Assembly (NCBI GenBank): GCA_035575715.1
Contig: DATLXN010000029.1
Coordinates: 14,079 to 78,078 of the forward strand
DNA: 64,000 nucleotides
From: Vicinamibacterales bacterium
GTDB taxonomy: Bacteria > Acidobacteriota > Vicinamibacteria > Vicinamibacterales > UBA2999
Direction of reading: 5' to 3'
Positions 8,617 through 30,017 of this stretch are shown here, piece by piece. Within the stretch, counting starts at the first letter, position 1, and the number at the start of each line of letters is the position of its first letter. Under the pieces are notes generated by a model. The model was given only the letters and a program-made list of their open reading frames with translations, was not told the DNA's origin and made no database searches. The position numbers and the translations under genes were made by a program.

Positions 8617-9522
8617 TCATGACGGTGTGAGCCGCAGCTTGGGGCGGACGCGCTCAAATGCCCGAATCACTTCCTGAACCGTCCGCGGCGTGCGACTCAT
8701 CTTCGGGTAGACCCACCCGGTTTCGCGCACCAACGACCGGCCTTCAATCCGGGCGCAGAACAAGTGGCCACTGGCCACGTCGCGCGACACGGCTTGAAAC
8801 GGGATGATGGTGATGCCGATGCCGTTGCGGACCATCGCCTTGATGATCTCGACATTCTCGGTTTCCATGACGATTTGCGGTTCAATCCGCGAGGTCATGA
8901 AGAATTCATCGACCACCCGCCGCGAATTGGACCCGGATTCAAACAGCACGAACGGCTGGCGGACGAGGTCCTGGGGCAGGATCTTGCGCTTGCGAGACAG
9001 CGGGTGCTTCGCGGCCGTCACCAGCAGCAGCTCCTCTTGCATCACCGGAACGGTCACCAGATCGGGCTGGTCGACTGGAATCGTCAGAAGCGCCAGGTCG
9101 CCGGTGCCGCTGCGCAGGTGCGCGATGCACCGTTCCGAGCTGCCGGTCACCAGCTTCAAGTCGATCGCCGGGTGCTGGCGCTTCAACTCTTGGAGGAGTG
9201 GGGGAAAGACGTAGAGGCAGACGGTCATGCCGCCCATCAGGCGCACCTGCCCGCGCAGCGATTCCTGGCTATCGGTGATGCCGGCAATGGTGTCTTTCAG
9301 GTCCTGAAAGACCCGATGCGACAGCTGCAGCAGCGAATCGCCAGCGGGGGTAATCCGAACGCGTCGCCCGACGCGCAGAAAGATCGGCTCTTTCAGCTCG
9401 TCCTCGAGCAGCAGAATCTGCCGGCTGATTGCCGATTGCGAAACGTGGAGTTTGTGACCGGCGGCGGTGAACGAGCCGGTTTCGGCGATGGCGCGAATGA
9501 TTTCCAGCTGACGAAGATCCAA
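8617..9522 (-). CDS. LysR family transcriptional regulator
   Basis: N-terminal wHTH MDLRQLEIIRAIAETGSFTAAGHKLHVSQSAISRQILLLEDEL plus a LysR substrate-binding domain. Confidence 0.9.
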   Translation of the reverse strand: MDLRQLEIIRAIAETGSFTAAGHKLHVSQSAISRQILLLEDELKEPIFLRVGRRVRITPAGDSLLQLSHRVFQDLKDTIAGITDSQESLRGQVRLMGGMTVCLYVFPPLLQELKRQHPAIDLKLVTGSSERCIAHLRSGTGDLALLTIPVDQPDLVTVPVMQEELLLVTAAKHPLSRKRKILPQDLVRQPFVLFESGSNSRRVVDEFFMTSRIEPQIVMETENVEIIKAMVRNGIGITIIPFQAVSRDVASGHLFCARIEGRSLVRETGWVYPKMSRTPRTVQEVIRAFERVRPKLRLTPS

Positions 9523-9600
9523 AGTGTCCCCCAGGTAGCCGCAGCTTACATGCGGGCCGGAGATGGATGCAATGTGGATCAGTCGTTTTATGGATGCCAG

Positions 9601-9641
9601 GATCAGGGATCGGGGATCAGGGATCAGGGATCAGGGATCAG
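9601..9641. repeat. heptanucleotide tandem array (GATCAGG)x6, one variant GATCGGG
   Basis: Read directly: gatcagg gatcggg gatcagg gatcagg gatcagg gatcag. Confidence 0.95.
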
Positions 9642-9678
9642 AAAGACAAAGGGCGGACGCAGCACGCTGCGTCCGCCC
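9641..9678 (-). terminator. intrinsic terminator of the peroxiredoxin gene
   Basis: 12-bp perfect stem GGGCGGACGCAG/CTGCGTCCGCCC (9651-9678), loop of 4 nt. On the minus strand it is followed by TTTGTCTTTC. Confidence 0.7.
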
Positions 9679-9701
9679 TCAGTCGACACGGTTGGCGTCC
9701 C

Positions 9702-10307
9702 CTAGGGCTTCTTTTTGACCAGGGCGCAGGCGCCGATCGCGCCGGCGGGATCCATCGCGGCTTGCGCGGCATCGATATGCCGCAGGATGCCGGCGTCATC
9801 GATGACAAACGTGTATCGACGGGCCATCCCGGAATTCTCGTCGAGGATGCCGAGCTTCCGGGTGTAGTCGCGTTTAGAGTCGCTGAGCAATGGGAAATCG
9901 AGTTTCATCGATTCGCGGAAGGCCAGGTTGGCCCAGGTCGAATCAACGCTGACACCGAACACCATGGCGTCGTTGGCGTTGAACTGGGCGTAGTTGTCCC
10001 GATACCGGGACATCTCGGTTGTTCAACCCGGCGAGAAAGCGGCCGGGAAGAAAGCGAGGACGACGACCTTGCCCTTCAAGTCGGAGAGCTTGGCGGTCTT
10101 CGACGTGGGTCGGGCGCCGGGGGCCGCCGGCTCGAGATAGGACAGCGAGAAGTCCGGCATCGGCTCGCCGACCTTCACCGTTGGTGGCGGTGGGGGCGGA
10201 GCAGCTTGCGCCGGGGGCGTCGCGGGGGCTTGAGCGGCTGCGGCAACCGGTGCCAGAGCCAACAAGCTAATCGCGCAGACGCCCAACACCGTGAGAGCGC
10301 ATTTCAT
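9702..10307 (-). CDS. secreted peroxiredoxin (AhpC/TSA-BCP-like) with in-frame TGA (10025-10023) at the peroxidatic Cys position; probable selenocysteine
   Basis: Track ORFs 10023..10307 and 9702..10013 are in the same frame, joined by TGA ACA ACC GAG. The joined protein reads ...KGKVVVLAFFPAAFSPG-U-TTEMSRYRDNYAQFNANDAMVFGVSVDS...DFPLLSD, so the PxxxSxxC motif has TGA at the C position. Signal peptide present. Confidence 0.7.
9996..10011 (-). promoter_or_regulatory. SECIS-like hairpin 11 nt downstream of the in-frame UGA
   Basis: Minus strand: UGA-ACAACCGAGAU-GUCCCG-GUAU-CGGGAC. 6-bp perfect stem, loop begins with G, stem extendable (U-A, mismatch, G-C, A-U). Confidence 0.55.
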
Positions 10308-10352
10308 GAGTCAAATACTACACGGGTACCGACGCCGCCCCTCGTCGCGGCG

Positions 10353-11264
10353 TCAGCGAAGGGCGTTCTTCGTGCGCGCGATCGCCTCTTTCAGGTAGTG
10401 CTCATCGAGTTCGATGCCGATGAAACCGACTTTCAGGCGGGCGGCGGCGACCGCCGTGCTGCCCAGGCCGAGAAACGGATCCATCACCACCTGCGCGCGG
10501 TCCACGCCGTGGAGGCGAATGCAGTTCTCAGGCAATTTGGGCGGGAAGGTGGCCGGGTGCGGGCGGTCGCGATCGCGGCTCTGGATGGTTTGGTAGGGGA
10601 TGAACCACGCATTCCCGCGGCAGCGGACATCGGCGCCGCCCCCCTGCCAGCGCGTGACGTTTGACTTGTCCTGATACTTCACGCCAAGCGCCAGCCGGTC
10701 GATCGGGGTGTGCGCGTCCGATGAGAAGTGGAAGATAAATTCCTGGCAGTCGTGCAGGAACCGGCTCGAATTGATTGGCTTGTAATGGCCCACTGCGAGG
10801 TCGTCAGTCAGCCCCGCGCGCACGCCGGCCGCGTCCTTATCGATGGCGATCGACTTGATCCAATGGATGGTGTTCTGCAGCTGCAGGTGCGCACGAGCGG
10901 CCTGGGCCACGTCAAGCGCCGTCCACGGGTCGGTCGGCTTGGCGCCGACGTTGAGAAATAACGACCCGTGCGGCGCCAAGACACCCGCGACCGCCGCAAT
11001 CCACTCGCCAGTCCAGGCCAGATACTCGGCGCGAGGCCGCTGATCATCGTAGGAGCGATAGCGAATCCCCAGGTTATACGGCGGCGACGTCACCACGACG
11101 TTGGCATGCGCGCGTGGCAGTTGGCCCAGCACTTCGACGCAATCGCCAAGATAAAAGCGGAGGGCTCGCGAACCGCGAGATAACAAGGCGTACGGTGTAG
11201 GTAAACGCAACGGGGTGGATTGTACCGAGCCGGGGCGGGAAGTACAAGGCAGAGCGGCCGGCAC
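10353..11264 (-). CDS. site-specific DNA methyltransferase (N4/N6 family, beta-class order, SPPY motif IV); no partner endonuclease seen
   Basis: VVVTSPPYNLGIRY (motif IV) lies N-terminal and VMDPFLGLGSTAVAAARL (motif I) C-terminal. PF01555-like. Confidence 0.85.
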   Translation of the reverse strand: MPAALPCTSRPGSVQSTPLRLPTPYALLSRGSRALRFYLGDCVEVLGQLPRAHANVVVTSPPYNLGIRYRSYDDQRPRAEYLAWTGEWIAAVAGVLAPHGSLFLNVGAKPTDPWTALDVAQAARAHLQLQNTIHWIKSIAIDKDAAGVRAGLTDDLAVGHYKPINSSRFLHDCQEFIFHFSSDAHTPIDRLALGVKYQDKSNVTRWQGGGADVRCRGNAWFIPYQTIQSRDRDRPHPATFPPKLPENCIRLHGVDRAQVVMDPFLGLGSTAVAAARLKVGFIGIELDEHYLKEAIARTKNALR

Positions 11265-11751: not shown

Positions 11752-14700
11752 TCACTTCGTCGCGTCGGCCCATCCCCGGCGCGCCGCCTCGGATGTCGGA
11801 TCGATGCTGAGTGCCTCCGCGAAATACTTCGCGGCCTGTGCACGATGACCGGTCTGCATCTCGAGTGTTCCGAGGTTGGCGTAAGTCGCCGGGTCACGCG
11901 GATCGGCCGCGAGCGAGGCCTTGAACGCCGTCCGTGACTCCTCATGCTGGCCGAGGCTGGCCAGGCACGCGCCAATCAGGTTGTGCGCCTTGGCATGCCG
12001 CGGGTTGAGCGCAATGACGCGGCGCGCTTCGGTCAGCGCCAATGGCGTCCGGTTTTCCATGAACAGCAACGCCGCGCTGTAGTAATGCGCGGCCTCGCTC
12101 GACGGTGCTTCGAGGCGCAAGCGAGCCACCACCGGCTTCATGCGTTCGGTGTCGCCGACGTCCGAGAGCACCGACGCGAGCTGCTCGAGCGCGGCGACAT
12201 TGCCGGCGTTGGTCTGCAGCATCGCCAACGGGATCCGGACCGCGTCGTCGATCACGCCTGCCGATGCCAGCAGCCGGGACAGCGCCAGCTTGGCCTCCTG
12301 GTGCGCCGGGTCGGCGGCGAGGCGTGTCAAAAAGAGACGCGCCTCGGACCCGCGCTGTTGCGGCCCGGCGGTCCTGATCAGCCCCTCGAGCGCCTGCGCG
12401 TCATGCGGGTCACGCTCCAGTGCGCGAACGAAATCGTCGTAGGCGGGGCGGACGGCGTCGGCGCGACTGAGCATCAGGCCGCGGTCGCGGAGCGCTGCGG
12501 GCGTCGCGCCCGCCAGCGCGTTGGCCACGGCCGCCGGACGCGTCGGCGTGGTCGCGGCCAGTGTGCGAAGTAAGGCCGCATTGTCGGCGGCGTTGCGACC
12601 AAACGCACTCTGCGGTCCAGAGAACTCCAGCGCGGCCCGGTCATCCGACTGTACCGGCGCATTCGCGGCCCACGCCGCCAATGCCTGGCCCTCGGCGACA
12701 AACATCGACAGCAATTGAAACGGCTCACGGGCTCCGACCGAAGCCAGGTCCGCGGCGACGCCCGGCCGATGCCAGGCTTGCGCCATGCCGTCCATCCTTG
12801 GCCCTAGCGGGGCGTTCGAACCGATCAGCAACACGTCGCCGTCACCGACCAGCCATAAAGTGCCGTCGGGAAACACCGACACGAAGGTCGCGGCAATCGA
12901 TTGCAGATCGCGCGTGCTGATGTCGTAGGTGTGAGCCCACTGGCACAGCACGCCGCCGGGGGCTAGACGATCGCGTGCGGCTTGGAAAAACTCGCGCGTG
13001 AACAGCGAGGCAATGCCCGCCATCCATGGATTGGACGGCTCCGACACGATGACGTCGTAGGTCTGTCGGGTCAGTAGCAGGTGGGTGCGGCCGTCACCGA
13101 CGATGATGTTGGTGCGCGGGTCGACTGCGGCGCGATGATTTTCGGCATCGAAGTAGCGGGACGCCTCGACCACTTCAGGCGAGATTTCCAGGACGTCGGC
13201 ATGCGCAATCGGATGGGTCAGCGCCGAGCCGAGCGTGACACCGCTGCCCAGACCGAGGATGGCAATGCGCTTGGGATCAGGATGCAGCAGCATGGGCATA
13301 TGTGCGAGGAGCCGCTGGGTCAGCATGTCGCCCGCGTTCGACGCATCGACCTTGCCGTCGATCGAGAGCGAGGTCGTGCCACCGACTTTGCGCACCGCCA
13401 CGGTGCCGCTCGGGCCTTCGCCGTAGTAGAGGACCTCGCCGGCTGTCAGCCCCGTGCGCAGGTCCTGTCCTTCCATCACCGAGGCGTACTTGTAAGCACC
13501 ACTTGATAGCAGCAGTCGATCCCAGGTCGGAAGGAACGCGCCGAGCAGCAGCACTGCCACGGCGGTGGTTCCGGCAACGAGGCGCGCGCGGCCGTTGACA
13601 TGCCCGAGCAGCAGAATCACCAGCGATCCGATCGCACCGACGATGGTAACGACCCGAATCGTCCCGTGAAGGCCGACCGTCGGAATCAGGACGAAGCCCG
13701 CAAGCAGTGCGCCGACAATCGCACCGGCCGTGTTAATGGCATAGATGAAGCCCAGATCGGCACTGACGCGGTCGTCGCGACGGGTCGCGACGGCAACCGC
13801 AAATGGAAACGCGGCGCCAAACGCAATGGTCATCGGCGCCAGGAGCACGATCGCGATCAGCGCCTGTCGCGTCAACACGCTGACGAATGTGGCGTCGGCA
13901 CGAGACACCACCTCCGCCACCGAGAGAAAGCCGCGATCGACCAGCAGGACCGAACCCGCCGCACATCCGACCGACAGCGCGAGACACAGCGACAGCCCGG
14001 TGAGTGGTTGACGGCTGCGCGCCGCGAGTCGCGACGCGATCGCGGCTCCGACGGCGAGGCCGCCGATAAACACCGCGACCATCGTGCTGAACGCGTAGGT
14101 GGTCGGACCGAGCATCAGCGCCAGCAGGCGCGTCCACACCACCTGTAGGGTGAGTGAGGCGAATCCGGAAATACCGAGCGCTGTGGCGGCGAGGGCTCGC
14201 TGGGCTGGCCTTGGTTCGCCAGCGTCCAGGACGCGCTCCCCGCGCGCGACTCGCGGGCTGCGCTTTCTCGCAGGACTCGCGCCGCCCTGCGGGTCTCCCA
14301 CGGCGACTCTCGCAAGATTCGCGGCGCTCGCAGGAACGGCGGATCGAGCGATCGACCACGCGCCGGCTGCGGCGATCACGTTGAGCGCGACGCCGACCCA
14401 CGTGGCTCCGGCGAGGCCAAGAAAAGGCAGGAGCAAGAATCCCGCAAGCAGCGCACCGATCGCCGCGCCGATCGTGTTCGCGGCATAGAGCCGTCCGGCA
14501 TCACGGGCGGCAGTCCCGGCATGCTGCACGAACCAACGCGAGGCGATTGGGAAGGTCGCGCCCATCGCCGCCGCCGGGATCGACAGCAACAGCAAACTGG
14601 TGACCAGCCGCAGGACGGCGAATGCCGTGCCGCCTGCACCATCGGCGTAGGTGGATGCCAGCAGCGGATCGAGCCCGCGAAGCTCAAAGGGCAAGATCAA

Positions 14701-14949
14701 CGCGAGCACCGCGACGCCAATCTCCAACCCCGCGTAAACGCGGAGCGCCCGCACCGGTTCGAGTGCCGCCCCGCGCCGCCCGCCGATCGCGGATCCAGCG
14801 GCGAGACCACCCATGAACGCCGCCAACACCGTACTGGCCGCTGCCACGCCGTGCCCCAGTTGCAGGGTCAACAGCCGCGTCCAGGTCACCTCGTAAATCA
14901 GCGCCGCGGCTCCAGAGGCCGCAAAAATCAAAGCAAACGCGCCACGCAT
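11752..14949 (-). CDS. fused polytopic membrane domain / spermidine synthase-like domain / C-terminal TPR repeats
   Basis: About 14 TM segments. ILGLGSGVTLG...VIVSEPSNPWMAGIASLFTREFF is spermidine-synthase-like. C-terminal TPR units. Confidence 0.85.
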   Translation of the reverse strand: MRGAFALIFAASGAAALIYEVTWTRLLTLQLGHGVAAASTVLAAFMGGLAAGSAIGGRRGAALEPVRALRVYAGLEIGVAVLALILPFELRGLDPLLASTYADGAGGTAFAVLRLVTSLLLLSIPAAAMGATFPIASRWFVQHAGTAARDAGRLYAANTIGAAIGALLAGFLLLPFLGLAGATWVGVALNVIAAAGAWSIARSAVPASAANLARVAVGDPQGGASPARKRSPRVARGERVLDAGEPRPAQRALAATALGISGFASLTLQVVWTRLLALMLGPTTYAFSTMVAVFIGGLAVGAAIASRLAARSRQPLTGLSLCLALSVGCAAGSVLLVDRGFLSVAEVVSRADATFVSVLTRQALIAIVLLAPMTIAFGAAFPFAVAVATRRDDRVSADLGFIYAINTAGAIVGALLAGFVLIPTVGLHGTIRVVTIVGAIGSLVILLLGHVNGRARLVAGTTAVAVLLLGAFLPTWDRLLLSSGAYKYASVMEGQDLRTGLTAGEVLYYGEGPSGTVAVRKVGGTTSLSIDGKVDASNAGDMLTQRLLAHMPMLLHPDPKRIAILGLGSGVTLGSALTHPIAHADVLEISPEVVEASRYFDAENHRAAVDPRTNIIVGDGRTHLLLTRQTYDVIVSEPSNPWMAGIASLFTREFFQAARDRLAPGGVLCQWAHTYDISTRDLQSIAATFVSVFPDGTLWLVGDGDVLLIGSNAPLGPRMDGMAQAWHRPGVAADLASVGAREPFQLLSMFVAEGQALAAWAANAPVQSDDRAALEFSGPQSAFGRNAADNAALLRTLAATTPTRPAAVANALAGATPAALRDRGLMLSRADAVRPAYDDFVRALERDPHDAQALEGLIRTAGPQQRGSEARLFLTRLAADPAHQEAKLALSRLLASAGVIDDAVRIPLAMLQTNAGNVAALEQLASVLSDVGDTERMKPVVARLRLEAPSSEAAHYYSAALLFMENRTPLALTEARRVIALNPRHAKAHNLIGACLASLGQHEESRTAFKASLAADPRDPATYANLGTLEMQTGHRAQAAKYFAEALSIDPTSEAARRGWADATK

Positions 14950-14972
14950 TGTGACGAGCTTATCAAACCAAG

Positions 14973-15013
14973 GATCAGGGATCAGGGATCAGGGATCAGG
15001 GATCAGGGATCAG
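14973..15013. repeat. heptanucleotide tandem array (GATCAGG)x6
   Basis: Read directly. Same unit as 9601-9641. Contains the stop codon of the upstream minus-strand gene. Confidence 0.95.
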
Positions 15014-16981
15014 TTCGTTGGCGGTCAACTCGCGGACGACCGGACGATACAGCACCATCGGGCCTTCGCGCGCGATTTCGTGGAGGTTCCAGGCGTCGGC
15101 GGCGAAATCGATCAACGCCTGCGGAGCACGCGCGTGGTTGATGACGACGTAGCCGACTCGGGAGCGGCGGATGAAGGACGGACCTTTCGCCCGCACGCGG
15201 TCTTCCTGCGCCGGGGTCAAGCTGCGCCCTTCGCTCAACGTCAGAAGCGCATCGACGGTGGCTTGCGAGCGGACCTCGCGGACACGTTTCTGCGAAATGC
15301 GCGAGAGGTAGCCGCCGATCAGGCGCTTGCCATGCCGCGTCTGGTAATACAGATAGCGCGAACTGAAGTCGCCAGCGGCAAAGGTGCCATCACGCACACC
15401 GATCGGCAGTTCGATAATCCGAACCGGCTGCGGGTCGGCGGCCACGATGTCGTAGATACGTGGCATCTCGGCGGAATACAGCGTGCGCGGTGCGGGCAGC
15501 AGCTCCAACAGCAAGGCGACGCCGGCCAAGGAGACGATCAGGCGCCGCTTCTCAGGATATCGTCGTCCCAGCGCCGCGAGCGCGCCGGCAAACAAGATCG
15601 CGACGCCGAGTGCCGCGACGACCGCAAATCGCGTCGGCGTCCGGGCCGTGCCAATGAGCGGCACATAGCGCAACAATGCCCACGGCCCAGGAACGTGCGT
15701 GTTGAAGCCGGCCAGGTAAATGAACGGCCCTAACGACAACGCCGCGAAACCGGCAGCCAGCCAAATCCAGGCGGCGCGCGGCCGATAGCCGCCGCGCCAC
15801 ACGGCGAACGCGAAAATCACGAGCGCCACAAGACTGAGCGACGCGGTGTATTCAACGAACACTGTGGGCTGCGCCGTTTGCTGGTCGTTGAACCAGCGCG
15901 CCACTGGATGGTTGGGATTGAAGGTGAACAGCCCCAGGAGGTCGACGCCGCGCGGACTACTGCGCCAGAGCGTTGGCGGCGACACGTAGCGGCCGTCGGC
16001 AACGCGTTGACCGAGCCCATACAGCACCGGTGAAAGGGGCACCGCACACGCGAACACCCCAATCAGCAACACGCGGACCGCGGCTGGCGACCAGCGGCCG
16101 GTGGGCATGAGGAGGTACGGGCGTGCCTGGATCGTGAGCCGTGCCAGCACGAGCACCGTCAAGAGCAACACCGGTGTGTAGAGCCCGTGCGCGCGGATTT
16201 CCACGCCGGCGATGGTGATCACGCCGCCACCGGTAACAACGATGGCTACGATGCCGAGGGCCACGGCGCCGATGGCACTATCCAGTGTCCACCTCCATCG
16301 CCACGGCGATGTCCTCGCATCAAATCGCACCTTTGCCCATCGCGCCGTCAAGTAGGCTGACGCAATCAAGAGGCAGAAGACCGCATAGTAAGCGTCACAG
16401 AAGCCGGCCCACGCCATACACGCGCCGGCGAGAGCCGCGTGACTTGCTTTGCGTGACTGGTGAGCCTTGCTTAGGAACAACACGAAGACCGCGAGCGGCG
16501 CCGCCGCCACCAGGCTGAAGTGGGCGGTCGATCGCGCCACCAGCACCGGCGACCAGGCAAACGCGACGCCGGCGAGCCACGCCTCGGGCCGACTCGCGTC
16601 GGTGACATGACGCACCAGCGCGTAGGTAGCCAGCGCAGTCATCACCGAAACGGTCAGCAAGACGACGTTGAAGGTCGCCACCACGCCGAGGATCGGGATC
16701 AGCGGCAACGCCAGAACATTAAGAAAGACGGTGTAGTTGTGCTGGGACAAATCGACCGGTCGGGTCAAGGACAACACTTGTTCGGTCGTGAACGGATTGC
16801 GTCCGCGCACCAGCGCTTCATGCTGGAATACCCATTGGTTCCAGATGTAGACGCCAGTATCTCCGCCTGGATCACCGGTCAGCGCTGTGCCCATCTGGAG
16901 AGCCAGCGGCCAAGTGAAAGCGAGCGCGACAAGGACGTATCCGAGGACGACGGCGATCCGGGGGGATGTACGCCGCAGCAT
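14996..16981 (-). CDS. large polytopic membrane protein, possible GT-C-type glycosyltransferase (function uncertain)
   Basis: 661-aa ORF with more than 12 hydrophobic segments and a soluble C-terminal domain. The last codons (..LIPDP*) are encoded by the heptamer array. Confidence 0.75.
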   Translation of the reverse strand: MLRRTSPRIAVVLGYVLVALAFTWPLALQMGTALTGDPGGDTGVYIWNQWVFQHEALVRGRNPFTTEQVLSLTRPVDLSQHNYTVFLNVLALPLIPILGVVATFNVVLLTVSVMTALATYALVRHVTDASRPEAWLAGVAFAWSPVLVARSTAHFSLVAAAPLAVFVLFLSKAHQSRKASHAALAGACMAWAGFCDAYYAVFCLLIASAYLTARWAKVRFDARTSPWRWRWTLDSAIGAVALGIVAIVVTGGGVITIAGVEIRAHGLYTPVLLLTVLVLARLTIQARPYLLMPTGRWSPAAVRVLLIGVFACAVPLSPVLYGLGQRVADGRYVSPPTLWRSSPRGVDLLGLFTFNPNHPVARWFNDQQTAQPTVFVEYTASLSLVALVIFAFAVWRGGYRPRAAWIWLAAGFAALSLGPFIYLAGFNTHVPGPWALLRYVPLIGTARTPTRFAVVAALGVAILFAGALAALGRRYPEKRRLIVSLAGVALLLELLPAPRTLYSAEMPRIYDIVAADPQPVRIIELPIGVRDGTFAAGDFSSRYLYYQTRHGKRLIGGYLSRISQKRVREVRSQATVDALLTLSEGRSLTPAQEDRVRAKGPSFIRRSRVGYVVINHARAPQALIDFAADAWNLHEIAREGPMVLYRPVVRELTANELIPDP

Positions 16982-26433: not shown

Positions 26434-26451
26434 GGATTGAGGCACTCATAC

Positions 26452-26778
26452 ATGGCTTCCGAAAAGGTTAAGACCCTCACAGATGCCGACTTTGACCAGT
26501 CGGTGAAAGACGGCGTGGTTCTGGTCGACTTCTGGGCGGAATGGTGCGCCCCGTGCCGTCGCCTGGCGCCGACGGTGGATCAGCTGGCTGATGATTACAA
26601 CGGCCGAGTGACGGTCGCCAAAGTCAACATCGACGAGAATCCGGCGACGCCGAATCGGTTTTTCATTCGCGGCATTCCCACCTTGCTGCTGTTCAAGAAC
26701 GGCGACCTCAAAGAAACCATCGTCGGACTCGCGGCCAAGGACGATCTGGTCCGCGTGATCGACAAGCACCTGGCCTAA
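26452..26778 (+). CDS. trxA: thioredoxin
   Basis: VLVDFWAEWCAPCRRLAP (WCAPC variant of WCGPC) and GIPTLLLFKNG. Confidence 0.9.
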   Translation: MASEKVKTLTDADFDQSVKDGVVLVDFWAEWCAPCRRLAPTVDQLADDYNGRVTVAKVNIDENPATPNRFFIRGIPTLLLFKNGDLKETIVGLAAKDDLVRVIDKHLA

Positions 26779-26782
26779 GCCA

Positions 26783-27709
26783 ATGACGCACCGAGAGGTC
26801 ACGATCATCGGGACAGGTCCCGCGGGTCTGACCGCGGCGCTCTATGTCGGGCGCGCCAACCTCCGTCCGCTGGTCATCGAAGGTATCGAACGCGGCGGTC
26901 AGCTGATGCTCACCACGACGGTTGAAAACTATCCTGGCTTCCGCGACGGCATCATGGGGCCGGACCTGATGGAAGACATGCGCGTCCAGGCCGAGCGCTT
27001 TGGCGCGACGTTTCTCCAAGGCGACGTGGCGGCGATTGACCTGACGCAGCGGCCGTTCCGTTTCACGGTTGACAAGACCGACTACACCACCGATACGTTG
27101 ATTCTCGCGACCGGCGCCTCGGCCAAGTGGCTCGACCTGGGGGTCGATAAACAGCTGTCCGGCCGCGGCGTGTCCACCTGCGCGACCTGTGACGGGTTCT
27201 TCTTCAAGGGACGCGACGTGGCCATCGTCGGCGGCGGCGACACCGCGATGGAAGAAGCAATCTATCTGTCGAAGCTCTGTTCGACGGTGACCGTGATCCA
27301 CCGTCGCGACACCTTGCGGGCGTCGAAGGTGATGCAGGACAAAGCCAAGTCCACGGCCAACATCAAATGGATTTGGCACACCGAAGTCATCGACATCAAG
27401 GATGTGACCAAGGGTGAAGTGACCGGCCTGGTGCTGCGCAACCTGCAGACCGGCGTGGTCAGCGATCTACCGATTGCCGGGATTTTCATTGCCATCGGCC
27501 ATATCCCGAACACCAAAATGCTCGCTGGGCAGCTCACACTCGACGAGAACGGCTACATCGTCACGCACGGCGGAACGCGCACCAATGTGCCGGGGGTATT
27601 CGCCGCCGGCGACGTGCAGGATCACATTTACCGGCAGGCGGTCACCGCCGCGGGATCGGGCTGTATGGCCGCGATCGACGCGGAGCGGTTTCTGTCAGGC
27701 ATCGAGTAG
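26783..27709 (+). CDS. trxB: thioredoxin-disulfide reductase
   Basis: IIGTGPAGLTAALY, redox-active CATCDGFFF, GGGDTAMEEA and FAAGDVQD. Confidence 0.92.
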   Translation: MTHREVTIIGTGPAGLTAALYVGRANLRPLVIEGIERGGQLMLTTTVENYPGFRDGIMGPDLMEDMRVQAERFGATFLQGDVAAIDLTQRPFRFTVDKTDYTTDTLILATGASAKWLDLGVDKQLSGRGVSTCATCDGFFFKGRDVAIVGGGDTAMEEAIYLSKLCSTVTVIHRRDTLRASKVMQDKAKSTANIKWIWHTEVIDIKDVTKGEVTGLVLRNLQTGVVSDLPIAGIFIAIGHIPNTKMLAGQLTLDENGYIVTHGGTRTNVPGVFAAGDVQDHIYRQAVTAAGSGCMAAIDAERFLSGIE

Positions 27710-28850: not shown

Positions 28851-30017
28851 TTACTTTCTTCCCCCCACTGTGGAGAGACGTCGAAGTTTCTCAATCAGCG
28901 CCGGCAGCGCCTCGATCACCCGATCAATGTCGCTGTTGGTGTTGCTCGCGCCGAGGCTGAAGCGGATCGAGCTGAGCGTGCGCGCGTGGGGTAGTCCCAT
29001 CGCTTTCAGGACGTGCGACGGCTCGAGCGTGCCTGACGAACACGCCGAACCGGATGACACGGCAATGCCTGCCAGATCCAGCCCGATCAGCAGCGACTCT
29101 GATTCAATCCGTTCGAAACTGATGTTGCTGGTGTTCGGGACGCGCGGCTCGGCAGCGCCATTGCGTTGCGCGCCATCGATAGCGTTGAGCACGCCGTCTT
29201 CGAGACGGTCCCGCAACACCCGAAGCCGTGCCGATTCACCGGCCATCTTGGTGAGCGCCAGTTGCGCCGCGGCCCCAAGGCCGACAATCCCGGGCACGTT
29301 CTCGGTGCCCGCACGGCGATTGCGTTCCTGGCGCCCGCCGGTGACGAAGGGCAGCAGGCGCACACCTTTGCGCAACCACAGGGCGCCAATGCCTTTCGGC
29401 CCGTAAAACTTATGCGCGGAGATCGACACGAGATCGACCCCGAGCGCCTTGACGTCGATCGGAATCTTGCCGGCGGTCTGCACCGCATCGGTGTGGACCA
29501 TGGCGCCGCTGGCTTTCGCGATCGCGGCGATCTCGGCGATCGGCTGGATGGTCCCGATCTCGTTATTGGCGTGCATCACCGAGACCAGGGCGGTGTCGTC
29601 GGTGATCACATCGCGCAACGCATCGGGATCGATCACGCCAGTTGCGGAGACCGGGAGCAGTGACACACGCCAGCCGCGCTTGGCGAGCGCTTTCACGGTG
29701 TTGAGCACGGCTTCGTGTTCGATGGCGCTGGCGATCAGATGTCGACGGCCGGTCGCCTCGAGCGCTTCAGCAACGCCGCGCACCGCAAAGTTGTCGCTCT
29801 CGGTCCCCCCGCCGGTGAAGATGACTTCCGAGGGCTCCGCACCGAGCATCGCTGCGACGTGGCTCCGCGCATCGTCGACGCCGGCTTTGGCTTGCTGACC
29901 AAAATGATGGACGCTCGACGCGTTGCCCCATAACTCGCGAAGCGCGCGGTCCATGCGGTCAGCCACCTCGGGCGCGACCGGTGTTGTCGCGTTGTGATCG
30001 AGATAGATGCGGCTCAC
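28851..30017 (-). CDS. cysteine desulfurase (NifS/IscS class I)
   Basis: IYLDHNATTP, SISAHKFYGPKG (PLP Lys) and SSGSACSSG (active Cys). Confidence 0.9.
   Translation of the reverse strand: MSRIYLDHNATTPVAPEVADRMDRALRELWGNASSVHHFGQQAKAGVDDARSHVAAMLGAEPSEVIFTGGGTESDNFAVRGVAEALEATGRRHLIASAIEHEAVLNTVKALAKRGWRVSLLPVSATGVIDPDALRDVITDDTALVSVMHANNEIGTIQPIAEIAAIAKASGAMVHTDAVQTAGKIPIDVKALGVDLVSISAHKFYGPKGIGALWLRKGVRLLPFVTGGRQERNRRAGTENVPGIVGLGAAAQLALTKMAGESARLRVLRDRLEDGVLNAIDGAQRNGAAEPRVPNTSNISFERIESESLLIGLDLAGIAVSSGSACSSGTLEPSHVLKAMGLPHARTLSSIRFSLGASNTNSDIDRVIEALPALIEKLRRLSTVGGRK

Follow-up and report, generated by a model that had tools for sequence, protein, structure and literature searches.

A peroxiredoxin gene of a Vicinamibacterales bacterium with a conserved in-frame UGA, probably read as selenocysteine, at the peroxidatic position

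The gene at the locus and its relatives

The window analysed here is a stretch of 64,000 nucleotides from a Vicinamibacterales bacterium of the Acidobacteriota (assembly GCA_035575715.1, contig DATLXN010000029.1, positions 14,079 to 78,078 of the forward strand). Its minus strand carries a peroxiredoxin gene interrupted by a TGA at the codon of the catalytic cysteine, and this gene, together with the RNA hairpin that follows the TGA, is the subject of this report. All coordinates are window positions (Table 1). L-numbers denote related loci, and P0001 is the closest protein in the databases.

We observed two minus-strand open reading frames (ORFs), 10023..10307 and 9702..10013, that are in frame with each other and have only TGA ACA ACC GAG between them (minus-strand sequence of 9550..10450). 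Read through the TGA, they give MKCALTVLGVCAISLLALAPVAAAAQAPATPPAQAAPPPPPPTVKVGEPMPDF...VVVLAFFPAAFSPG-[TGA]-TTEMSRYRDNYAQF...GACALVKKKP, followed by TAG, and the residues directly after the TGA are TTEMSRYRDNY. The GC content of third codon positions (GC3) is coding-like on both sides, at 0.90 before and 0.78 after the TGA. When residue 95 was set to Cys, the Pfam domain AhpC-TSA (PF00578) matched residues 46-178 with an E-value of 3e-35 and 121.3 bits (cutoff 26), and this match covers profile positions 1-124 of 124 and crosses the UGA. The initial annotation had joined the two ORFs into one AhpC/TSA protein and had placed the TGA at the peroxidatic Cys codon; the frame, the domain match and the Cys found in this column in homologues bear out both claims. 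The DNA methylase gene just upstream itself terminates in TGA, which is thus an ordinary stop in this genome and has not been globally reassigned.

In a 20-sequence alignment of homologues, FFPAAFSPG-C-T was invariant at the TGA column. Arg164, which we take from its position in the family and from what is generally known of peroxiredoxins to be the conserved catalytic Arg, was also invariant, and the candidate resolving Cys194 was in addition kept in every complete selenocysteine (Sec) form among the genome loci described below (GAC/GVC...KKK). Read by eye, the protein begins with MK, about 20 hydrophobic residues and AAA before a Q, and every homologue in the alignment has an equivalent, variable hydrophobic N-terminus. 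In the Pro-rich linker that follows, P40, P41 and P42 are invariant and P38/P39 nearly so, just ahead of the domain start VKVG. Such an N-terminus predicts export via SecYEG, with the protein either periplasmic after cleavage or N-terminally anchored, both being equally possible. The signal-peptide-like start and the linker first noted for this protein are therefore visible in it and in all its homologues, while the export that was deduced from them stands as a prediction.

Table 1. Features of the peroxiredoxin locus (window positions)
Feature	Position	Strand	Details and basis
Complete peroxiredoxin coding sequence	9702..10307	-	201 codons, UGA = residue 95, stop TAG; sequence and frame, Pfam, about 1300 homologues
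In-frame UGA, probably read as selenocysteine, at the peroxidatic position	10023..10025	-	TGA also in L001, 41 genome loci and 25 of the 120 metagenome matches listed
Active-site motif P88-A-A-F-S92-P-G-U95 (PxxxS/TxxC(U))	10023..10046	-	P88, S92, P93 and G94 invariant; residue 95 column is Cys in Cys forms
Arg164 codon, putative active-site Arg of peroxiredoxins	9816..9818	-	R164 invariant in 20-sequence alignment (A1)
Cys194 codon, candidate resolving cysteine near the C-terminus	9726..9728	-	C194 invariant in A1
Putative Sec-translocon signal peptide or N-terminal anchor, residues 1 to ~25 (MKCALTVLGVCAISLLALAPVAAAA, then Q)	10233..10307	-	Read from sequence
Pro-rich linker, residues 26-43 (QAPATPPAQAAPPPPPPT)	10179..10232	-	A1 alignment
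Whole SECIS-like element	9978..10027	-	Lower stem GUUGAAC (10027..10021, holds the UGA) with GUUCAAC (9984..9978) around the apical hairpin; folds
Apical SECIS-like hairpin	9995..10012	-	UGUCCCG (10012..10006) with CGGGACA (10001..9995), 7 bp; loop GUAU (10005..10002)
Intrinsic-terminator-like hairpin, 22 nt past TAG	9639..9680	-	14-bp stem (site at 9680..9649), 10 GC pairs, 4-nt loop, T-rich tail TGTCTTTCTG
LysR-family regulator, neighbour	8617..9522	-	Pfam HTH_1 and LysR_substrate

A homologue search of about 5.8 billion proteins returned some 1300 sequences, of which the full-length ones are about 200 residues long, come from Vicinamibacteraceae-like sources and have the same architecture. 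The closest of them, P0001 (76% identical; a JGI call), has a W at the Cys column (FPAAFSPGWT). The DNA of its contig, L001, has TGA at this W codon, and its translation under code 11 does not yield P0001, presumably because the gene caller applied a code in which TGA is Trp.

We further scanned one genome per GTDB species with the degenerate DNA pattern FPAAFSPG-TGA-T. The pattern was found at 41 loci, all of them in Acidobacteriota metagenome-assembled genomes (MAGs), most labelled Vicinamibacterales and two Solibacteraceae-like, and including closed or multi-megabase long-read assemblies, among them chromosome OY970174.1 (L042), CAWEBU010000006.1 (L008) and CAWJYM010000004.1 (L037), the last two of 3.7 Mb each. 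At all 41 loci the frame continues past the TGA, with 104-109 codons to the stop except in L007, where the stop comes after 69 codons, and in four loci that run off the end of the fetched sequence. In L007 (an uncultured Acidobacteriota MAG), the sequence diverges before the early stop in a frameshift-like manner, possibly through an assembly indel. Metagenome contigs were scanned with the same pattern carrying TGH; among the 120 matches listed, to which all metagenome counts refer, 25 have TGA, 89 TGC and 6 TGT.

The 103-residue C-terminal ORF of the window is identical in three other assemblies (Logan SRR7741809 and SRR6263248; ENA/JGI ERZ27252406), and in all three a short upstream ORF precedes it at the spacing seen here, which is evidence against a read error. 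The MAG RBC084 has a pair of distinct TGA paralogues, L016 (CADEDM010000361.1) and L024 (CADEDM010000158.1); their presence implies that more than one of its genes has a decoded UGA and lends the Sec reading indirect support. The initial annotation had named a near-identical relative carrying TGC as the sign of a recent nonsense mutation. No TGC form was found among the close relatives, and every close relative found has TGA, namely L001, the 41 MAG loci and the 25 metagenome contigs.

In a neighbour-joining tree of 136 distinct sequences, the TGA forms fell into two monophyletic clades, one of 51 distinct sequences (including the window) and one of 5 (Solibacteraceae-type), and no Cys form lay inside either. 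Identity within the larger clade goes down to 50%, with a median of 66%. The ratio of nonsynonymous to synonymous substitution rates (dN/dS) was estimated by the Nei-Gojobori method for pairs within the 51-sequence clade; its median was 0.27 for the 50 codons upstream of the TGA and 0.30 for the downstream part, at a dS of about 0.9. For the downstream half, comparison of the window with L030, its nearest relative at 88% identity, gave a dN of 0.078 and a dS of 0.827. Both halves of the gene are under purifying selection and, since dN/dS is about 0.3 downstream, the part after the TGA is translated and constrained.

The hairpin downstream of the UGA

The RNA just past the UGA can form a hairpin with the core GUCCCG-GUAU-CGGGAC (10011..9996), which lies 11 nt past the UGA and is extended by a seventh pair, U10012-A9995; the apical loop begins 17 nt after the UGA. 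A 60-nt segment folded with -23.1 kcal/mol (z = -3.55), a stability that 200 dinucleotide shuffles never reached. In the model of the bacterial selenocysteine insertion sequence (bSECIS) given in a 2026 review (PMC13188914), the apical loop has 3-9 nt and the upper stem 4-16 bp, the minimum free energy (MFE) is at most -7.5 kcal/mol, at least one of the first two loop bases is G (as a rule with a G or U after it), and 16-37 nt lie between the UGA and the loop. The window hairpin agrees with this model in every respect (loop of 4 nt, G then U, stem of 7 bp, spacing of 17 nt, and MFE).

Hairpin conservation among the TGA homologues, which had been proposed as a check on the gene, was high. In 39 distinct Sec-form sequences with this architecture (type 1), the apical stem was paired in 98.5% of cells, as against 34-54% when the 3' partner was slid by 1-3 columns. 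A compensatory pair joins the third positions of a Ser TCN and an Arg CGN codon and was CG in 30 sequences, UA in 9 and mismatched in none. In a second, GC in 38 sequences and CG in one, the swap was made in L083 through a Met-to-Leu and an Asp-to-Glu change. Not one of 500 column shuffles matched the observed covariation score. The lower stem was 94.6% paired in a 60-nt alignment of 29 sequences, with U-A to U-G changes. Carriers of U-A were interleaved with carriers of C-G in the leaf order of the tree, which suggests more than one C-G/U-A switch, as judged from leaf order rather than by a formal reconstruction of events. The first G of the loop is invariant although it is a third codon position, the codon being mostly Arg CGN and in three sequences Gln CAG.

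At the same interval the hairpin was absent from the ten Cys forms that were folded. Their mean MFE was -13.0 kcal/mol (z -1.6 to +1.0), as against -18.3 kcal/mol for ten Sec forms; the type-1 Sec forms folded had z of about -3.6 to +0.2, with four near -3, two near -1.4 and one at +0.2. The hairpin encodes the peptide EMSRYRD, which hardly varies in the Sec clade, whereas the Cys forms differ among themselves here (EMAKYQE, EMKQYQT, ELKKYHE). Thus the SECIS-like hairpin first noted after the UGA, described then as extendable, has held up on its 7 bp, its agreement with the bSECIS model, its covariation and its absence from the ten Cys forms.

Two other hairpins take its place in parts of the family, and both also fit the bSECIS model. 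The sister group with MQRYRE/MTRYRES (type 2) has a 7-bp stem, GCGGUAU/AUGCCGC, 21 nt past the UGA with G second in the loop; it was 100% paired in 7 sequences and has a compensatory pair (UA in 5, CG in 2), and its fold energy was not better than that of shuffles. In the Solibacteraceae-type sequences (type 3) the stem is long and interrupted, and its GGC loop lies 23 nt past the UGA. A CUGG-CGUA-CCAG hairpin considered for these sequences was dropped, as the fold predicts the longer stem with the GGC loop. The replacement of the hairpin in two subclades is SECIS turnover under coding constraint. Hairpins of types 2 and 3 were seen at L021, L034, L041, L053, L060, L084, L111 and L150, and at L010, L015, L072, L098 and L124.

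Reading of the UGA and comparison with known systems

The conserved TGA, the intact downstream ORF under purifying selection and the covarying hairpin support the recoding at the peroxidatic position that the initial annotation had proposed. Taken together with the domain and its N-terminus, they make it very probable that a single gene at 9702..10307 (minus strand) encodes an exported peroxiredoxin of the atypical 2-Cys type, with selenocysteine as its peroxidatic residue. From these data and from peroxiredoxin chemistry we infer the inserted residue, the export, the chemistry between U95 and C194 and the reductant as follows. When the ribosome reaches UGA95, the downstream hairpin, whose lower stem includes the UGA, would recruit SelB-GTP-Sec-tRNA(Sec), and Sec would be inserted in place of termination. 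The N-terminal signal sequence would take the still unfolded protein through SecYEG, while the domain may be tethered or spaced by the Pro-rich linker. Within the site formed with P88, S92 and R164, U95 would reduce peroxides and become a selenenic acid, which C194 would resolve to a selenenylsulfide; an envelope thiol-reductant would then recycle the enzyme.

Several points weigh against this. Both Sec insertion and export are read from sequence only. No tRNA-Sec was found in the window by ARAGORN or Rfam, which gave only a tRNA-Pro, nor in the 162 related loci (955 kb including the window) by ARAGORN; no selA, selB or selD turned up in the window, where no search aimed at Sel proteins was made. 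As was to be expected, Rfam gave no bacterial SECIS match, either for the window at gathering thresholds or for 9900..10100 at E <= 10, where only the tRNA-Pro and a chance miRNA hit appeared. Two type-1 and two type-2 sequences folded no better than shuffles (z +0.1 to +0.4). The covariation rests on few variable pairs, since the hairpin is mostly invariant, and relatedness among the sequences inflates the shuffle statistics.

The residue inserted at the UGA could also be other than Sec: Cys, delivered by a tRNA(Cys)UCA that resembles tRNA(Sec) and works with a SelB paralogue, or Ser or another residue by way of an acidobacterial allo-tRNA suppressor. The precedents are selC* tRNA(Cys)UCA with selB* in some anaerobes, and allo-tRNAs that are frequent on Acidobacteria-assigned contigs and may be nonsense suppressors (PMC5389517). 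A SelB*-type route would also predict a SECIS-like hairpin, and a UGA read as Sec looks the same in the DNA as one read as Cys. However, the selC* cases in that study belong to Firmicutes, Thermodesulfobacteria, Nitrospirae and Proteobacteria and not to Acidobacteria, whereas Sec use is documented in Acidobacteria, with three selenoprotein families counted in 2006 (PMC1794560) and the acidobacterium Occallatibacter riparius among Sec-utilising test genomes (PMC12013277). Recoding UGA to Cys would bring no obvious gain over TGC, the codon of most family members, and no selC* or allo-tRNA of the needed kind was found in the 955 kb of loci. We therefore regard a non-Sec residue as very unlikely, and so too a hairpin-assisted suppression in which an allo-tRNA, or a tRNA resembling tRNA(Sec) and bearing a UCA anticodon, delivers Cys or Ser. 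If allo-tRNA decoding were true, the peroxiredoxins of this abundant soil clade would be the first gene family that acidobacterial allo-tRNAs serve in nature.

If the UGA were instead a true stop, the locus would encode an exported N-terminal fragment of 94 residues and perhaps, from the ATG at 10013, a second protein of 103 residues, as a split or regulated gene. Gene callers annotate just those two ORFs, and the ATG does lie 9 nt past the TGA; but this ATG encodes the conserved Met in C-T-x-E-M, a family motif, and it is found in the Cys forms too. Neither fragment would hold the catalytic residue, the C-terminal piece would have no signal peptide, and a true stop leaves unexplained why it falls on the very codon where Sec/Cys exchange is known, with a covarying hairpin next to it. 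We consider this very unlikely. Had the in-frame stop been seen in one sequence only, a lesion would be the usual reading, and the frame of L007 is indeed truncated late in the gene. Against a recent nonsense mutation or a sequencing or assembly error stand the recurrence of the TGA in 41 species-level genomes, in L001 and in 25 metagenome contigs, the split ORF layout of the three further assemblies, the monophyly and divergence of the TGA clade, the downstream dN/dS and the lack of TGC in those close relatives that were found. Both a pseudogene and an assembly error are thus extremely unlikely and in practice excluded.

Reading the UGA as Sec places the gene beside a known class. Sec-peroxiredoxins have been known since 2001, and PrxU of Eubacterium acidaminophilum is reportedly a validated one. 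The peroxiredoxin selenoprotein family had 12 members and five independent Cys-to-Sec events as counted in 2006 (PMC1794560), and 'Peroxiredoxin (Prx), PF00578, TxxU' is a listed bacterial selenoprotein family (PMC13188914), so that the existence of such selenoproteins in bacteria, as first noted for this locus, is established. The replacement of the peroxidatic Cys of a peroxiredoxin by Sec is not a new principle, and the window gene belongs to a known selenoprotein kind. It shares with this family the Pfam domain, Sec in place of the peroxidatic Cys in PxxxT/SxxC and an in-frame SECIS just past the UGA. It differs in having SxxU rather than TxxU, a signal sequence, a Pro-rich linker and a candidate resolving Cys at the extreme C-terminus. 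The hosts also differ, since those listed in PMC1794560 as rich in selenoproteins are mostly anaerobic Deltaproteobacteria and Clostridia, whereas here they are soil Acidobacteriota of the Vicinamibacterales type.

In the NCBIfam profile search, the window protein scored 67.8 bits against PrxU (NF040737), far below the cutoff of 270, and so is not a PrxU orthologue; Prx-SUH (NF045827) gave no match at E <= 0.001, and E. coli-type BCP (NF006960) gave 66.1 bits (cutoff 140). The best sequence matches in the PDB were proteins of the BCP/PrxQ kind, from Sulfolobus tokodaii (2ywn/4g2e, E 2e-25) and S. solfataricus (Bcp4, 3hjp, E 1.7e-23), with which it shares the motif VVVLAFYPAAF..CTKEM and the domain length. 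These archaeal proteins, in contrast, are cytoplasmic and Cys-based, and the closely spaced Cys pair typical of BCP (four residues apart) is absent from the window protein, in which the conserved second Cys is C194.

The Cys orthologues of Vicinamibacteria and other Acidobacteriota (identity 45-61%) have the signal sequence, the PPPPPP linker, FFPAAFSPG-C-T and the C-terminal Cys, and differ in carrying TGC or TGT in place of TGA, besides the differences in hairpin and peptide given above. JGI calls them 'peroxiredoxin' or 'mycoredoxin-dependent peroxiredoxin', and NCBI uses 'redoxin domain-containing protein'.

As for the RNA element, the UGA lies within the base of an extended stem in E. coli fdhF, as it does here. 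The two hairpins have no primary-sequence likeness, which is normal for bSECIS elements (PMC13188914). What sets the present case apart from other bSECIS elements is the occurrence of three hairpin architectures inside one orthologous peroxiredoxin family, and these three solutions offer material on how SECIS elements evolve under coding constraints.

Acidobacteria of the Vicinamibacterales type are common soil bacteria. UGA rather than a Cys codon is present in about one fifth of the environmental sequences of the family, among the matches listed, and if the UGA is indeed read as Sec, the peroxide defence of the envelope in this soil lineage would be affected by how much selenium is available. 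The Sec and Cys orthologues are directly comparable and form a natural experiment. We found no paper describing this TGA peroxiredoxin clade in the literature library searched for selenocysteine in Vicinamibacter and Acidobacteriota.

Annotation and genomic neighbourhood

The expectation that automated callers would miss this gene was borne out, since they either split it into two ORFs or give the TGA as Trp (as in P0001), and the family is thus systematically mis-annotated. In the public calls at L163, L164 and L165, the gene appears as a short N-terminal ORF (39-45 residues) and a 103-residue C-terminal ORF; AhpC-TSA is 'weak' in the N-terminal ORF of L163, and the N-terminal ORF of the window was not in the protein collection searched. 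No NCBIfam selenoprotein model covers the family, so model-based selenoproteome surveys may miss it. Selenoproteins may also be hidden in public protein sets as full-length entries with a W at the active site.

A scan for further TGA-joined ORF pairs with coding-like GC3 gave no other credible pair in the window, where two other matches were antisense to real genes; in the related loci it gave antisense artefacts and only L146. In this metagenome contig, another BCP-type peroxiredoxin reads YFFPAAFSPGCT-TGA-EVCGFRD, with the in-frame TGA at about 3546 on the plus strand, two codons past the peroxidatic Cys. Coding-like stretches of 155 and 108 codons flank this TGA, which could be an error, a pseudogene or a further case of recoding.

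Around the window gene, both neighbouring features described initially are present: a terminator-like hairpin of its own and, downstream on the same strand, a LysR regulator (Table 1). A LysR gene also adjoins the peroxiredoxin gene in L042, in the same order (methylase, peroxiredoxin, LysR, VWA-like), and in L030, where the two are divergent; this arrangement suggests a regulatory link between LysR and the peroxiredoxin.

Elsewhere in the window, thioredoxin and thioredoxin reductase genes are adjacent (26437-26778 and 26783-27709), and a class-V aminotransferase gene of the NifS/cysteine-desulfurase-like type lies nearby (28851-30017, minus strand). Enzymes of this type can serve as selenocysteine lyases; nothing in the window ties the NifS-like gene to selenium.

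A 7-nt tandem repeat, GGATCAG, occurs in about six copies at 9600-9641 and at 14970-15011. Both sites are intergenic, one just past the peroxiredoxin terminator and the other between the genes 11752..14949 and 14996..16981, and a two-unit probe matched 9 times, as against 0.01 expected by chance. In L030, ORF translations of the intergenic region upstream of the peroxiredoxin gene have a similar GIR/QGSG periodicity, and the repeat may be conserved in the lineage.

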